A stretch of 39,812 nucleotides of DNA from Minisyncoccota bacterium (lineage in GTDB: Bacteria > Patescibacteriota > Minisyncoccia > Phycocordibacterales > JAGLOS01). Positions within the stretch are counted from its first letter, which is position 1. Each line of letters opens with the position of its first letter. Location of the stretch: the NCBI GenBank assembly GCA_023137615.1, contig JAGLOS010000003.1, positions 1 through 39,812 of the forward strand, given 5' to 3'. A program made the translations under genes and the position numbers. The notes beneath the pieces are model-generated. The model had not been told where the DNA came from. It did no database searches and saw only the letters and a list, made by a program, of their open reading frames with translations. This document shows, piece by piece, positions 322 to 28,526 of this stretch.

Positions 322-1365
322 TTATACTTTCTTGTCAAGCAGATCGATCAATGCAAGCTCGACGGGCAGATGTACAATATATGAAAAATCGAGTTTTGAA
401 TACGCCTCAAGAAAAGCAAGAACTGTTTTTGATGAAATGGCGGTATTTTTCGCATCGCTCAACTTTTTCAAGAATTCAAAATCGTCTTCGTCGAGTTCTT
501 CTTTGATCTCCTTTTCCATAGCCGGAGCATTGCGAAGAAGAAGAACGAAACGAAGTTTCGCCAAAATAAGCTTTACAAATATTTTCATATTAATATTCCC
601 CTCAGCCGCCTTGTTGACCGCAACAAGCCCCGCCTCAAGATCGTTTTCAGAGATCGCAATGATCACATTGTCGATAAGCGCTCGGCGCGGCGCACCGGTG
701 ATCGCCTCCACCTCCTCTGCTGTGATCTTTTTGTCAGCCGAAGTACTGATCACTTTTTGTACTATTCCCAAAGTATCGCGAAAAGCTCCGTCACCAAGGA
801 TCGCAATGAGCTGCGCCGCGGACGGATCAAGAGTATAACCCTCTTTTTTTGCTATTTTAAGCGACACCTCTTTGAGTGTTGTTTGTGAGGGTTTTTTGAA
901 GTTAAAGGTCTGACATCGCGATACGATCGTCGTAGGAAGTTTCTCTGCTTCCGTGGTCGCCAAGATAAAGACAACATGTGAAGGTGGTTCTTCCAAAGTC
1001 TTTAACAATGCATTGAACGCTTCTTTGGTAAGCATGTGCACTTCGTCTATGATATATACTTTATATTTTGAGTCGAACGGAAGCGTCGACACCGAGTCTC
1101 GCAGTTCGCGGATGTCATCAATACCTCGATTCGACGCGGCGTCTATTTCATACAGATCACTTGCCGATGTACCCAACTCTTTTGCAAAAATACGCGCAAT
1201 ACTCGTCTTTCCGATACCTCGGCTACCCGCAAAAAGATATGCGTGTGCAAATGTCTCGTTTTTGAGTGAGCTTTGAAGCGTATTTACAATATGATCCTGT
1301 CCAATAATATCTTTGAATTCCATTGGACGATGTTTTCTATAGAGTGTTGTTTCTTCTTGAGTCAT
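322..1365 (-). CDS. dnaX: DNA polymerase III subunit gamma/tau (short form, domains I-III)
   Basis: LYRKHRP, GSRGIGKT Walker A, EIDAASNRGIDDIR, IIDEVHML, LLKTLEEPP, SRC motifs. Confidence 0.97.
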   Translation of the reverse strand: MTQEETTLYRKHRPMEFKDIIGQDHIVNTLQSSLKNETFAHAYLFAGSRGIGKTSIARIFAKELGTSASDLYEIDAASNRGIDDIRELRDSVSTLPFDSKYKVYIIDEVHMLTKEAFNALLKTLEEPPSHVVFILATTEAEKLPTTIVSRCQTFNFKKPSQTTLKEVSLKIAKKEGYTLDPSAAQLIAILGDGAFRDTLGIVQKVISTSADKKITAEEVEAITGAPRRALIDNVIIAISENDLEAGLVAVNKAAEGNINMKIFVKLILAKLRFVLLLRNAPAMEKEIKEELDEDDFEFLKKLSDAKNTAISSKTVLAFLEAYSKLDFSYIVHLPVELALIDLLDKKV

Positions 1366-25719: not shown

Positions 25720-26496
25720 CTATTTAGAATCATCTGCCAACTTTCTTTCTTGGATAGCATTTTGATGCTTTGCACTCCAAGCATATAATGCGATCGCCGC
25801 AGATGCCGCTGCATTGAGTGACTCACATTTTTGATCGATCGGTATGGAAAGCATAATGTCACAAAGATCACGTGTCTTTTCGCGCACACCCTTTGCCTCA
25901 TTACCAAGAACAAACACAGTCGGAGCATCAAATTTTTCATCAGTTACTTTTGTCTCAGCTTCACCTGCAAGTCCATACACCCAAAAACCGCGTTTTTTGA
26001 GGTCTCGAATCGTATCATTGATATTTCCAATAGTTACCAATGGAATTCTAAACGCCATCCCCGCAGAAACTTTTACAACAGCCCCTGTCGCTTGACCTTG
26101 ATTGTGTGACGGCATAAGTACGCCCGACACCCCAAAAGCAGCCGCAGAGCGTATCACCGCACCGATATTTTGCGGATCCTGCAATTCACCCAAGATCACC
26201 AATGACGTGTCTTCCTTTATTTCAAGATCCTTGATAAATTCTTTGTATGGACGCATCAAGCCCTCATTTGCAACAAGCGCCACCACACCTTGATGAGTGG
26301 CTTCACGCAGGTCTTTTCCCAAAGTGGCATCTCCTGAGAGTTTTGATGTCGGCACACCCGTTTCCTTAATAAGAGTCAAAAGCTCCTCATCGTCAATATT
26401 CGACGAAAGAAACACTTTCTTGATCGACTGCGGCGAATGCGCCAACGCCTCGATCAGCGCGTGTTTTCCATAGATATATGTCTTCCTCTCTTTCAT
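25720..26496 (-). CDS. rlmB: 23S rRNA Gm2251 methyltransferase (SpoU family)
   Basis: YGKHALIEAL, HQGVVA, DPQNIGAVIRSA, LGNEAKG, ESLNAA. Confidence 0.9.
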   Translation of the reverse strand: MKERKTYIYGKHALIEALAHSPQSIKKVFLSSNIDDEELLTLIKETGVPTSKLSGDATLGKDLREATHQGVVALVANEGLMRPYKEFIKDLEIKEDTSLVILGELQDPQNIGAVIRSAAAFGVSGVLMPSHNQGQATGAVVKVSAGMAFRIPLVTIGNINDTIRDLKKRGFWVYGLAGEAETKVTDEKFDAPTVFVLGNEAKGVREKTRDLCDIMLSIPIDQKCESLNAAASAAIALYAWSAKHQNAIQERKLADDSK

Positions 26497-26541
26497 GGTA
26501 TCAATTATACTATATCAGATAGAATATATTACAATACATAA

Positions 26542-26585
26542 AAAGAATTAGGTAATTAAAATATGTTTTAATTACCTAATTCTTT
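26542..26585. terminator. 20-bp perfect AT-rich inverted repeat, probable terminator of the tRNA transcript
   Basis: AAAGAATTAGGTAATTAAAA-TATG-TTTTAATTACCTAATTCTTT. Confidence 0.6.
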
Positions 26586-26621
26586 CAGCAGCAGCCATAG
26601 GCGTAAGATGAAATTTCTCTT

Positions 26622-26824
26622 TGTGACTCTACGGGGAGTCGGGGTCAAGTTTCTAAGTATTTTCTTCACTCTTTCAGAGCTCAAAAATACTAAGAACTTC
26701 CTCCCCGGACTCGGCTACAGTTCTCCTTTCGGTCGAACTGGCTTCGCCGCCTCCGTCTTTCGACTCCCCGTAGAGTTCTCAGGCACACGAAAAAATCCAT
26801 CTTTCAGATGGATTTTTGTGCCTG
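26622..26824 (-). ncRNA. structured tRNA-linked element with direct and inverted copies of the tRNA-Glu 3' end
   Basis: 18-bp direct repeat at 26622-26639 = 26823-26840; inverted 17/18 copy at 26759-26776; several GAAA-containing hairpin loops on the minus strand. Confidence 0.7.
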
Positions 26825-26896
26825 TGACTCTACGGGGAGTTGAACCCCGATTGCCGGCTTGAGAAGCCGATGTCCTAACCATTAGACGATAGAGCC
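26825..26896 (-). tRNA. tRNA-Glu (anticodon CTC), CCA not encoded
   Basis: GGCTCTA-TC-GTCT AATGGTTA GGAC-A-TCGGC TT CTC AA GCCGG-CAAT-CGGGG TTCAACT CCCCG-TAGAGTC-A cloverleaf. Confidence 0.97.
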
Positions 26897-26901
26897 GAAA
26901 T

Positions 26902-26943
26902 TAGTTTGTAGTTTGTAGTTTGTAGTTTGTAGTTACTAGTAAA
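26902..26943. repeat. heptamer tandem repeat (TAGTTTG)4 plus 2 degenerate units in the tRNA leader
   Basis: Read directly from the sequence. Confidence 0.9.
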
Positions 26944-26945
26944 AC

Positions 26946-26974
26946 AGAATACCAGATTATTTCAAAAACGTCTA
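26946..26974 (-). promoter_or_regulatory. putative tRNA-Glu promoter
   Basis: TAGACG-17 nt-TATTCT with TG extension. Confidence 0.5.
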
Positions 26975-27051
26975 CACGATCACCTGTAACCACTCACACT
27001 TAACATCAATAATCTGTAAAAAATAAGTCATTACAACTTTGTTCTAATCAT

Positions 27052-27083
27052 AATTCAATGGCTATGGGTATAGCCATTGAATT
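27052..27083. repeat. 14-bp perfect inverted repeat
   Basis: AATTCAATGGCTAT-GGGT-ATAGCCATTGAATT. Confidence 0.75.
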
Positions 27084-27112
27084 GTCCGACCTCCTTCATA
27101 ACAACGGCAAAG

Positions 27113-27210
27113 CCGTCTTTGCGAGCGTTTAGCGTGGCAATCCAGAGTCACAACCACAATACTCTAGACTGCCACGTCACTCCACTGCGTTCCGCTCCTC
27201 GCAGAGACGG
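27113..27210. repeat. REP/RPE-like palindromic element, copy 2 (inverted relative to copy 1)
   Basis: CCGTCTTTGCGAG...GTGGCAATCCAGAGT...ACTCTAGACTGCCAC...CTCGCAGAGACGG; reverse complement aligns to 17809-17914. Confidence 0.8.
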
Positions 27211-27236
27211 GTGGTTTTAGGTGTGAGTGGTTATGA

Positions 27237-28526
27237 TCACCTGCTCTGCCACTCTTTTTCCTGTCGCACCAATACTTGTTTTTTGTTCTCCGGATGTGCC
27301 ATTATCTCTTCCACGGCGTACTCCATGCGCATACCTTGTGATCCTTTTATAAATATAACATCTTCTTCTTTAATAATTCTTTCAGCATGTTTCCCCGCTT
27401 CTTTAGAATCGGCAAATTCCACGATATTCTTTTCTGACATGCCGCCGATCAACGCACCGTCCACCACAGATTGCGCACGCGGTCCAACTACGAACAAAAG
27501 GTCACACATTTTACCAACCATTACACCCACCTCTTTATGTGCCTCTATGGTAAATTTTCCAAGTTCGAGCATATCCCCCAAAATAGCGATCTTTTTACCT
27601 TTTATATTAAGTTCCCCGACAGTTTCAAGCCCCGCCAAGACAGCGACAGGAGAGGCGTTATATGTATCATCTATGATGATACATCCTTTCAAGCCCTCAA
27701 CAAGACGCAATCGCCCGGGTGGTGGCGTATAGCTTGAAAGCGACTCAAGAATGTCCTTTGTGTCCAACTTGAAATATCTCCCAACAGCGAGCGCGCACAG
27801 GGCAACATAGACATGATGTCTTCCAAAAACATTTTTCATGTGTATTGTTATTTTCTTTCTCCCATCTTTGAGTTCAAAAGAAAGACCTATCGGAACACCA
27901 TCATTGTATGAGATCTGCACGTTATCCGCTCGAATATCTGTATTTTTTTCAAATCCGTATGTAATATATTCATGATCGGTAGTGTCTTTTAGAACACGCA
28001 CTTTTTCGTCATCCCCGTTGAGAATGAGAAGTCCGTCTTTTTTTAGTGAATTTATAAGAAATGCCTTTTCCCGAACAAGATGTTCAACGGAATCAAAAAA
28101 TTCAACATGTGTCGGCACATCCCCAAATCGTGTGATGACCACAATATCAGCCACAAGCCATTTTGAAACATTTTCAACATCTCCCGGTCTTTCGGCACCA
28201 ACCTCAAGGATCAACAATTCCGGATAATGATGTCTGAATATCAAAAGAGAAACACCTTTTATAATATTCTTTAACCATAAAAAAGGGTTATTCCATCCTG
28301 TCGGACAATTCAAAATGGTCAGAAGCACATTGAATTCACCACTAAAACTCTTTTTGCTCTTCCGTACAAAAAAAGATTTGTTCAAAACAGTATAAAGAGC
28401 GTCTTCGGTAGATGTTTTTCCCACGCTTCCTGTGATCGCGATAACGCGCGGGTGATATTTTTTCAAAACAAGTTTTGCCTCGTATATAAGTATCGCAACG
28501 ACGATCTTCTTGAACATGACTTTCAT
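27237..28526 (-). CDS. murF: Mur ligase, MurF-like (no N-terminal domain)
   Basis: IAITGSVGKTST, LEVGA, LNGDD, PGRL, DDTYNASP, LGDMLELG, KGSQGMRME; start placed at ATG 28526. Confidence 0.85.
   Translation of the reverse strand: MKVMFKKIVVAILIYEAKLVLKKYHPRVIAITGSVGKTSTEDALYTVLNKSFFVRKSKKSFSGEFNVLLTILNCPTGWNNPFLWLKNIIKGVSLLIFRHHYPELLILEVGAERPGDVENVSKWLVADIVVITRFGDVPTHVEFFDSVEHLVREKAFLINSLKKDGLLILNGDDEKVRVLKDTTDHEYITYGFEKNTDIRADNVQISYNDGVPIGLSFELKDGRKKITIHMKNVFGRHHVYVALCALAVGRYFKLDTKDILESLSSYTPPPGRLRLVEGLKGCIIIDDTYNASPVAVLAGLETVGELNIKGKKIAILGDMLELGKFTIEAHKEVGVMVGKMCDLLFVVGPRAQSVVDGALIGGMSEKNIVEFADSKEAGKHAERIIKEEDVIFIKGSQGMRMEYAVEEIMAHPENKKQVLVRQEKEWQSR

Follow-up and report, generated by a model that had tools for sequence, protein, structure and literature searches.

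Small gene-less folded cassettes carrying copies of the adjoining tRNA end behind tRNA genes of ultra-small bacteria

The tRNA-Glu(CUC) gene considered here lies on the minus strand of a 39,812 nt stretch of contig JAGLOS010000003.1 from a Minisyncoccota bacterium, referred to below as the window. It is followed by about 200 nt of folded sequence in which the 3' end of the tRNA occurs twice more, once in antisense and once in sense. The locus raises the question of what kind of element carries two copies of the end of its neighbouring gene. The original prediction, made from the letters of the window, was of a non-autonomous, tRNA-targeting mobile RNA or MITE, or of a conformational switch or decoy att site controlling tRNA maturation or blocking integration.

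Anatomy of the element in the window

The tRNA and all of the described parts of the folded element are found on the minus strand at the expected places (Table 1). The antisense arm X' is 94% complementary over its 18 nt to the tRNA end at 26827-26844 and complementary at 16 of 16 positions to the distal copy at 26626-26641. This distal copy belongs to an exact direct repeat of 18 nt (26622-26639 and 26823-26840), as had been predicted. The repeats are spaced 201 nt apart and all of this spacing is structured. Together, S and X' form a 16 bp closing stem, P1, which in the window is full and perfect apart from one terminal mismatch. The first hairpin has perfect 12 nt arms (26791-26802 and 26806-26817) around a 3 nt loop and an outer stem of 11 nt that is 91% matched. 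Its stem continues into the tRNA end on one side and into X' on the other, making X - H - X' one long, unbroken palindrome. The second hairpin is probably the original terminator of the tRNA-Glu locus.

Table 1. Features of the tRNA-Glu(CUC) locus in the window
Feature	Position	Strand	Description and basis
tRNA-Glu(CUC)	26824..26896	-	No encoded CCA; ARAGORN; Rfam RF00005 tRNA, 62.3 bits
Sequence X			Source of the arm copies: last ~18 nt of tRNA-Glu (T-loop end, T-stem 3' strand, acceptor 3' strand, discriminator)
Hairpin H1	26778..26823	-	A-tract, 8 bp core stem, GAA loop, T-tract, outer stem; terminator-like
Antisense arm X'	26759..26776	-	Watson-Crick complement of the tRNA 3' end
Core helix P2	26706..26755	-	Conserved internal loop GAC-GGA-G / C-GA-GUC; variable hairpin with GAAA tip; fold and covariation
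Core helix P3	26642..26705	-	Long hairpin, quasi-palindromic CTTAGT box, GAA triloop tip; fold and covariation
Sense arm S	26622..26641	-	Exact 18 nt direct copy of the tRNA end including the discriminator, plus the following CA
Covariance-model match	26631..26771	-	Type-A core and inner arm parts; model R1, 110.7 bits, E 1.3e-27
Hairpin H2	26541..26586	-	20 bp perfect stem then T-run, ~35 nt past the sense arm; terminator-like

The X' arm has an A opposite U71, and tRNA-Glu itself pairs G2 with U71. Because an A stands at this position, X' in the window is the complement of the 3' strand of the tRNA rather than a copy of its 5' strand. The same comparison of G-U positions has one usable case beyond the window, and this is also a complement.

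The 161 nt element has a minimum free energy of -77.5 kcal/mol (z = -9.46), which was equalled by none of 200 shuffles, and a 301 nt stretch has one of -131.9 kcal/mol (z = -8.79). Two mutually exclusive pairings of X' had been proposed, and either can be obtained by prediction: in the longer fold X' pairs with the tRNA's own end, and in the shorter with the distal sense copy. For the window copy, either strand is predicted to fold nearly equally well, as DNA or as RNA.

The neighbours are housekeeping genes, encoding a Mur ligase, a PBP, a SpoU methylase and a pseudouridine synthase, which bears out the observation that no integrase is close by. No promoter-like site was found within 26350-27250. 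The contigs of metagenome run X1 span 25900-26712 and 26699-26896 with 0 differences. Since contigs from an independent read set tile it without a difference, the tRNA-end repeat is not an assembly artefact. Nor is the element a known Rfam family. At the Rfam 15 gathering score the tRNA alone passes over the element region, and at E values up to 10 there are only the tRNA and chance matches of the microRNA-type hairpin kind.

A family of cassettes with local arms

The 201 nt behind tRNA-Glu(CUC) belong to a large family of cassettes that contain no genes. Each is placed immediately 3' of a tRNA or tmRNA gene and without exception shares its orientation. The parts are H (the hairpin), X' (the antisense arm), a conserved core built from P2 and P3 as a three-way junction, and S (the sense arm). 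X' and S have the T-loop, T-stem and acceptor 3' sequence of the local tRNA and close the core as P1. The family shows turnover among related genomes, tandem arrays, and exchange of core segments between copies.

The window's own genome, G000, is 768 kb in 45 contigs and 95.7% complete. A BLAST search of it with the window element identified two partial copies, behind tRNA-Leu(CAA) and tRNA-Gly(UCC), with arms that match these tRNAs and not tRNA-Glu. The copy behind tRNA-Leu(CAA) has an 83% match to the window's P3. All 34 tRNAs of G000, each with 330 nt downstream, were then scanned for ungapped copies of each tail. An antisense and/or sense copy of the gene's own end is present downstream of 20 of the 34, as counted by reading the scan. 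Most of these cassettes follow the order H, X', core, S. Their cores are of at least three types: type A, to which the window copy belongs, type B behind tRNA-His, tRNA-Thr(UGU) and tRNA-Ser(GGA), and a short type C behind tRNA-Ser(CGA). The cassette-free tRNAs (Pro, Gly-GCC, Trp and Arg-CCU) have a long hairpin directly after the gene, the stem of which stops short of the acceptor strand.

Tandem arrays are found in G000 (three units at Ala, two each at Leu-GAG and Asp) and in other genomes, at loci L057 and L061. At some arrays the repeat unit takes in H, as at Ser-GGA of G000 and locus L043, and also at L057 and L061. Solo X' arms without a core are found at Tyr in G000 and at Lys-UUU in genome G148. 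Many antisense arms contain a mini-hairpin, usually with a CTGC loop, exactly at the boundary between the acceptor part and the T-stem part. Where the gene encodes CCA, as for Asp in G000, tRNA-Gly(CCC) and tmRNA, the arms include it.

Fifteen type-A copies were aligned (A1). A second alignment of 13 copies (A2; 12 from G000 and one from the congeneric genome G002) was made with two poor aligners and three long copies with extra modules removed and the arms trimmed. RNAalifold gives a three-way junction for A2, comprising P1 from the arms, P2 and P3. Among the 13 copies, 19 of the 27 pairs are compensatory, with both sides changed and pairing kept. Their mean column identity is 61%. Across the cassettes compared, few pairs of copies exceed 95%.

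A covariance model, R1, was built from A2. It has 22 matches in G000 at E up to 0.01, of which 20 are behind a tRNA on the same strand and two are at a contig end. A further 37 copies were identified with R1 in 29 loci, each from a different genome; 34 of them follow a tRNA or tmRNA gene on the same strand, and the remaining three are at contig starts. Their arms follow the local gene across 15 amino-acid identities (Phe, Ala, Thr, Ser, Trp, Arg, Lys, His, Glu, Tyr, Gly, Leu, Gln, Pro and Asn) and tmRNA. In the alignment of these 37 copies, which is fitted to R1, standard pairs occupy 96.9% of 954 cells and 22 of the 27 pairs show changes on both sides. None of 500 shuffles reaches the observed values, and a control with slid partners gives 27-38% pairing. 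The unpaired blocks GAA, CGGAG and CGAG are nearly invariant. The inner 8-9 bp of P1 covary. P1 begins at acceptor position 1 or 2, and the discriminator stays unpaired.

The same core thus stands beside different tRNAs with flanks that match each of them, an outcome that had been named as support for the original prediction, and the core is neither unique to this locus nor free of covariation. Because of this, and because the element is neither an Rfam family nor an assembly artefact, a non-autonomous element that targets tRNA ends was the right kind of idea.

In the window's order, R1 matches are present in 118 of 151 sampled genomes, including 106 of the 134 of high quality, with at most 20 candidates scored per genome. 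Complete genomes of the order in one to five contigs that have no R1 match also exist. In an even sample of the phylum there are matches in 8 of 151 genomes, G000 among them. An exact-motif scan of 185,579 species genomes identified at least 119 stretches. Among the 80 matches listed, 68 have Patescibacteria-type labels, seven have labels of other phyla and five have no useful label. Five of the seven other-phylum stretches listed, three labelled Elusimicrobia and two Bdellovibrionales, have R1 matches right behind same-strand tRNAs, and the stretches labelled Acidimicrobiaceae and Myxococcota have neither an R1 match nor a tRNA. All five unlabelled loci have R1 matches. Two of the Elusimicrobia-labelled copies keep the fold and the local arms at 72-80% G+C. 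Given R1 matches on Elusimicrobia- and Bdellovibrionales-labelled contigs, the family is not confined to CPR bacteria, if the bins are correct. No match to the cassette was found in phage records, and no description of such elements in the full texts searched. Small gene-less folded cassettes behind the tRNA genes of ultra-small bacteria are a widespread and apparently undescribed family.

Turnover, arm states and the folded strand

Differences between related genomes were scored as presence or absence, both for G001 and G002, which are of the genus of G000, and for the congeneric pair G148 and G037; the flanks are too diverged to align. A cassette is present behind tRNA-Gly(GCC) in G002 and there is none in G000. 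Between G148 and G037, a type-A cassette directly behind the gene is common to about 11 tRNAs and differs at 11 or more, type A alone being scored. One G002 copy resembles the window core at 94% identity over 70 nt and 100% over 28 nt; its sense arm is different, and two additional modules are inserted in it. Between G002 and the window, the adjacent Mur-ligase gene has an identity of only 66%. In G037, the copies behind tRNA-Arg(GCG) and tRNA-Gly(UCC) are 95.7% identical over 138 nt, mini-hairpin included, and unrelated in H, in the acceptor part of the antisense arm and in the sense arm. Near-identical cores at different tRNAs indicate either that cores moved and had their arms rewritten or that gene conversion took place between resident copies.

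No contig joint that skips the cassette was found among contigs of four DNA runs over 25900-27500, which says little because contigs lose rare variants. Metagenome relatives of the downstream SpoU gene reach no more than 62% identity; of the 35 loci examined, none has tRNA-Glu upstream of this gene and four have another tRNA there.

The state of the arms was determined for 75 type-A copies no more than 110 nt from a tRNA (16 from G148, 22 from G037, 13 from G000 and 24 from other loci), excluding later units of arrays. The 12 nt sense arm, comprising the T-stem 3' and acceptor 3' strands, is perfect in 36 of the 75 and the 7 nt acceptor part of the antisense arm in 19. Both are perfect in three, against about nine expected under independence. 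A full and perfect P1 such as that in the window is therefore an exception. As a rule, a single arm agrees with the local tRNA throughout and its partner does so in the T-loop/T-stem part only; P1 is seldom perfect in its outer part. One copy has a sense arm that departs from its tRNA, with a compensating change in the antisense arm. The usual presence of just one fully local arm may point to renewal of a single arm at each event, or to a spread of cores through gene conversion between resident copies.

One sense arm, at G002:C58, matches the 3' region of a dnaA-like ORF in G001 with two mismatches (about 0.4 such matches expected by chance), so that a protein gene might conceivably serve as host. 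This contig begins inside the element, and the dnaA-like designation comes from a reading of the translation.

The loops and the base pairs bear on whether the cassette works as DNA or as RNA. On the tRNA-sense strand of 50 copies (6742 nt), CGAAG occurs 43 times and its complement not at all, and GCGAAGC 18 times with no occurrence of its complement. Among predicted hairpin loops, C(GAA)G is the most frequent (n = 20). In a 2026 review (PMC13037366), GCGNAGC and GCGNNAGC are described as extraordinarily stable DNA mini-hairpins, the RNA versions of which are far weaker, and such mini-hairpins are reported from single-stranded phage origins, ssiA and N4 promoters. In the cassettes, 16 of 981 paired cells (1.6%) are G-U and 32 are other mismatches (6 A-C and 26 others), as counted in an alignment fitted to the model. 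In the acceptor and T stems of 110 tRNAs from G000, G148 and G037, G-U accounts for 63 of 1320 cells (4.8%), against 14 other mismatches (4 A-C and 10 others). G-U is thus about three times rarer in the cassette than in tRNA stems of the same genomes. It appears to have no special tolerance there, since its ratio to other mismatches is 16:32 in the cassette and 63:14 in tRNA. These loops and G-U counts, which depend on predicted loops and a model-fitted alignment, together with the terminator position and the recombination-like architecture of the repeats, lean towards folded DNA of the tRNA-sense strand.

The mobile RNA or MITE of the original prediction stands, then, as a non-autonomous element that targets tRNA ends; the evidence leans away from a mobile RNA, reverse transcriptase being absent from three of five high-copy genomes, G000 among them, and the element does not fit a MITE. 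The arms differ at each locus, being the local tRNA end rather than family-wide terminal inverted repeats, no cognate transposase was found in G000, and near-identical copies are few, at a mean column identity of 61% among the 13 copies aligned.

Enzymes that might act on the cassettes were sought in five high-copy genomes: G000, G148 (one contig, 99% complete), G048, G003 and G099. Reverse transcriptase (PF00078) is present in two of the five and absent from G000, G148 and G048. TnpB is found in none. Y1 transposase and resolvase (serine recombinase) matches are each present in three of the five, the former weak, and both are absent from G000. Phage_integrase is present in all five, with exactly one match in each. 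In G000 this match is a 311 aa Xer-type protein that scores 241.7 bits with the XerA model (cut-off 220). An integron integrase was not found in G000, where the sole tyrosine recombinase scores 138.6 bits with the integron-integrase model (cut-off 265). It would appear that the Xer-like tyrosine recombinase is the only trans-acting candidate in all five high-copy genomes.

Several further identities were considered and rejected. A PBS-like primer site does not fit the window, where the complementarity ends before the discriminator and CCA, and G000 has no reverse transcriptase; its absence from three of the five high-copy genomes, G000 included, also speaks against a retron, DGR or other non-coding RNA linked to reverse transcriptase. 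A TnpB/IscB guide RNA has no TnpB to serve in any of the five. No Rfam match to a group I or II intron or a small ribozyme was obtained at E up to 10. A tRNA duplicate with a replaced interior is incompatible with an X' that is the complement of the 3' strand.

Possible origins and resemblance to known systems

The explanation tentatively preferred here, with rather less than even confidence, is that the cassette is a protein-less element that acts as folded single-stranded DNA and has the footprint of integration of the CTX-phage or integron attC type. The active form would be the folded tRNA-sense strand as DNA, not RNA. Within this strand, X' and S would pair into a duplex copy of the tRNA end, presenting a mimic of the attachment site on a structured spacer. 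A single-stranded circle, H - X' - core - X, might then recombine with the double-stranded target through one strand exchange, followed by replication, to give the integrated order X - H - X' - core - X. The enzyme would be supplied in trans, with the host's single Xer-like tyrosine recombinase as the candidate, and H would restore or preserve termination of the tRNA transcript. Because the integrated order equals that described for CTX, the cassette can be read as a minimal CTX-like element.

Such a mechanism explains neither the target-matched arms nor their either/or pattern, nor what the mini-hairpin does. Neither a circle nor a single-stranded form of the cassette was observed. Xer is not confined to the genomes that carry the family, and to our knowledge there is no precedent for a housekeeping Xer that acts at dozens of different tRNA ends. 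A move from tRNA to tRNA by crossover inside an arm would leave a chimeric tRNA. Near-identical cores can arise by gene conversion without a new insertion, the window copy folds about as well on one strand as on the other, and the fixed co-orientation, the purine-rich loops and a P1 that resembles an acceptor/T minihelix would suit a transcribed RNA equally.

A transcribed tRNA-like non-coding RNA is a doubtful explanation that nonetheless has a real claim to attention. It would be made by read-through from the tRNA gene, with P1 mimicking the acceptor/T-arm minihelix, and RNase P, RNase Z and the CCA-adding enzyme would yield a stable RNA of about 155 nt; or X' would toggle between the tRNA end and the sense arm and so control tRNA maturation. 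It would account for cassettes that always have the orientation of the tRNA and for a P1 beginning at acceptor position 1 or 2 with a free discriminator, and CCA in the arms where it is encoded. Strong covariation, purine-rich loops on the sense strand, more G-U (16) than A-C (6), the prediction of both alternative folds, and the persistence of many copies in very small genomes are further points on its side. However, the cassette is behind a terminator-like hairpin with a T-run and has no promoter-like site in the stretch searched, G-U is about three times rarer than in tRNA stems and not favoured over other mismatches, and the triloops of DNA mini-hairpins dominate rather than GNRA or UNCG tetraloops. 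With intact sense arms in 36 and perfect antisense acceptor parts in 19 of the 75 copies, the full minihelix is not general, and the presence of cassettes differs between congeneric genomes. The maturation switch and the decoy att site of the original prediction likewise draw no support from a full sense arm that is found in only 36 of 75.

Cassettes might also have arisen with no machinery and no function, as by-products of template switching at terminator palindromes and at the near-palindromic T-loop sequence TTCGAA, which is universally conserved, and have been spread by gene conversion and unequal crossing-over. The continuous palindrome X - H - X' and the tandem units with H inside the repeat (Ser-GGA of G000; L043, L057 and L061) are what such template switching might leave, and the patchy identity between copies with local arms, the solo X' arms without a core and the lack of a transposase common to the carrier genomes also agree with it. 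It is nevertheless quite improbable, in view of the 97% pairing with compensatory changes kept across 29 genomes of different families, the invariant unpaired nucleotides, and a fold retained at 72-80% G+C; moreover, the terminators of cassette-free tRNAs do not extend into the acceptor strand. More improbable by far is the ordinary scar of an integrase-borne island or prophage that was once in the tRNA-Glu gene and was later deleted. The direct repeat of the tRNA 3' end (18 of 18 nt) is the classical footprint of such an event, but just 201 nt separate the repeats, among housekeeping neighbours and with no integrase, cargo or remnants. This interior is the conserved structured core common to cassettes behind many tRNAs and genomes, its internal inverted copy is foreign to such a footprint, and there is no matching phage record.

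The single-stranded DNA explanation also has a more ambitious form, put forward as an unlikely but coherent proposal. The cassettes would be a new class of protein-less element whose single-stranded fold uses antisense and sense copies of the adjoining tRNA or tmRNA end as a self-made attachment site. At essentially any tRNA gene, the sole tyrosine recombinase or the replication machinery would be able to put cassettes in, take them out, stack them and exchange them, and the arms would be rewritten from the target by a templated mechanism. If so, the smallest bacterial genomes would have a platform for integron-like recombination that spans the whole genome.

Mobile and non-coding DNA is generally regarded as having been lost from ultra-small CPR/Patescibacteria genomes, yet the 768 kb genome of the window keeps 22 copies of a structured element of about 150-200 nt, and more than three quarters of the sampled genomes of its order (118 of 151) carry the family. 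Should the cassettes prove mobile with no enzyme of their own, they would represent a new route by which DNA homes to essential genes, and one would have to ask how arms that match each target come to be written. As RNAs, they would be among the largest unrecognised RNA families tied to tRNA biology. There are also practical consequences: the cassettes break assemblies at tRNA loci and mimic integration scars in island-finding programs, and R1 is a ready covariance model for annotating such genomes.

Among short repeats, Correia elements, REPINs and BOX/RUP are gene-less, multi-copy, hairpin-forming intergenic sequences with inverted ends. The cassettes share all of these features, being short, gene-less, multi-copy and hairpin-forming with inverted ends. 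They differ from such MITE-like repeats in having ends that are copies of the target and copies that have diverged with compensatory changes, and in that no cognate transposase was found in G000. Plant mitochondrial t-elements and mascRNA have a helix resembling the acceptor/T-arm beside another transcript, which can be cleaved by RNase P or RNase Z. The predicted P1 of the cassette may be a similar helix next to another transcript. However, t-elements and mascRNA are single loci, and the cassette has an antisense copy of the neighbouring tRNA and a conserved three-way-junction core. With the genomic islands and prophages of tRNA and tmRNA genes the cassettes share the 3' part of the gene as target and the direct repeat that is left. 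They are unlike these in their 200 nt without integrase or cargo, their extra inverted copy and folded core, and the many tRNAs occupied in a 0.77 Mb genome.

The attC sites of integrons are set by the fold of one strand, with imperfect inverted arms and a variable centre, and are found in tandem arrays behind one primary site. The cassette is similarly a structure-defined imperfect palindrome read on one strand, as indicated by the covariation and the 43:0 asymmetry of the loops. In contrast to attC, it has arms copied from the adjoining tRNA, no cassette ORFs and no conserved R-box, and G000 has no integron integrase.

CTX offers a parallel in architecture. As described in PMC3089051, the single-stranded genome has a pair of inverted dif-like sites, with about 90 nt between them, that fold to make the attachment site; XerC exchanges one pair of strands, replication resolves the junction, and both arms remain on the chromosome. 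Integrons are named there among the single-strand integrators (PMC3089051). On that account, the cassette is like CTX attP(+) and IMEX in having two inverted target-like arms, some 90-120 nt apart, that fold in one strand and mimic a double-stranded target, with no recombinase of its own and a host Xer present. It is also like CTX/IMEX in its integrated order of target copy, element, antisense arm, spacer and sense arm. CTX is a 7 kb phage with a single dif target, whereas the cassette is about 200 nt, gene-less, and has dozens of tRNA and tmRNA ends as targets. Its arms vary with each target and resemble tRNA ends rather than one dif, its spacer is a conserved covarying structure, and the enzyme that acts on it would, by analogy, be Xer.

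Core types sharing one arm arrangement

The core of the window's cassette, type A, is the basis of the covariance model, and at least two other core types were found in the window's own 768-kb genome (G000). Type B, which follows the same arm logic as type A, lies behind tRNA-His, tRNA-Thr(UGU) and tRNA-Ser(GGA) and is also present as unit 2 behind tRNA-Phe; a short type C core lies behind tRNA-Ser(CGA). One way of carrying arms is common to different cores. Some of the type A copies have an optional module of approximately 95 nt within P3, which also adjoins tRNA-Ile on contig C41 of G000 without a full cassette. Either the module is a nested insertion or it forms an optional domain.

Coordinates of cassette variants, transposase matches and elements upstream of tRNA-Glu
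Feature	Genome or source	Location
Type B and type C cores	G000	C1:25740-25884; C5:11240-11446; C45:2339-2483; C19:1805-1881
Type A copies with P3 module	G000	C12:7362-7634; C12:8765-9037; C44:29659-29929
Type A copy with P3 module	G002 (same genus), C58	L016 60-160
Cassette loci, Elusimicrobia label		L225; L242; L248
Cassette loci, Bdellovibrionales label		L253; L259
Weak Y1_Tnp matches	G148	C1:1838-2116; C1:344928-345149; C1:379502-379723
tRNA-Tyr with hairpin and antisense arm but no type A core	G000	C12:18002-18086
ACAAACT repeats	Window	26901-26933
Member of another repeat family	Window	27091-27233
Small hairpin element	Window	27007-27084
14-bp perfect hairpin	Window	27052-27083

Copies labelled outside the Patescibacteria and Y1_Tnp matches

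Type A cassettes with local arms are present behind tRNA-Arg, tRNA-Ser and tRNA-Gly on contigs labelled outside the Patescibacteria, the labels being those of MAG bins. Two of the cassette copies among such contigs have a G+C content of 72-80%.

Weak matches to Y1_Tnp (HUH) were identified in three ORFs of 239-255 aa in the carrier genome G148 (0.75 Mb, one contig), and the carrier genomes G048 and G099 have one match each. No Y1_Tnp match was found in G000 or G003. These ORFs may serve another repeat family.

Incomplete loci and the CA after the discriminator

The loci at tRNA-Lys(UUU) in G148 (L156) and at tRNA-Tyr and tRNA-Arg(UCG) in G000 each have the hairpin plus a perfect antisense arm of 19-20 nt, with no type A core after them. 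These coreless loci are either precursors or deletion derivatives. At another locus (L197, G037:C5:50800-53800), an incomplete second copy of tRNA-Phe, diverged in its 5' half, separates the intact tRNA-Phe from the cassette that belongs to it (L197 positions 878-1146, minus strand).

Nearly all G000 tRNA genes without an encoded CCA have CA directly after the discriminator, where it is the start of the terminator palindrome. The direct repeats of the cassettes in this genome take in this CA.

Repeats and an indel upstream of tRNA-Glu

Directly upstream of tRNA-Glu are approximately 4.5 repeats of the 7-nt unit ACAAACT (tRNA strand), and short, highly similar matches to this region (query 1592-1635) occur in other contigs and genomes. 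Further upstream is a member of another repeat family, with 94% identity to G000:C22:1825-1964 and 86% to C4:3584-3694. Across the four metagenome runs, the summed contig depth is 35-458 at 27088-27195, compared with 5-18 in the flanking bins. Contigs in all four runs lack 76-77 nt of the window at 27007-27084, with 10-11 different letters in their place, and the skipped part contains a 14-bp perfect hairpin. Here a small hairpin element shows insertion/deletion polymorphism.
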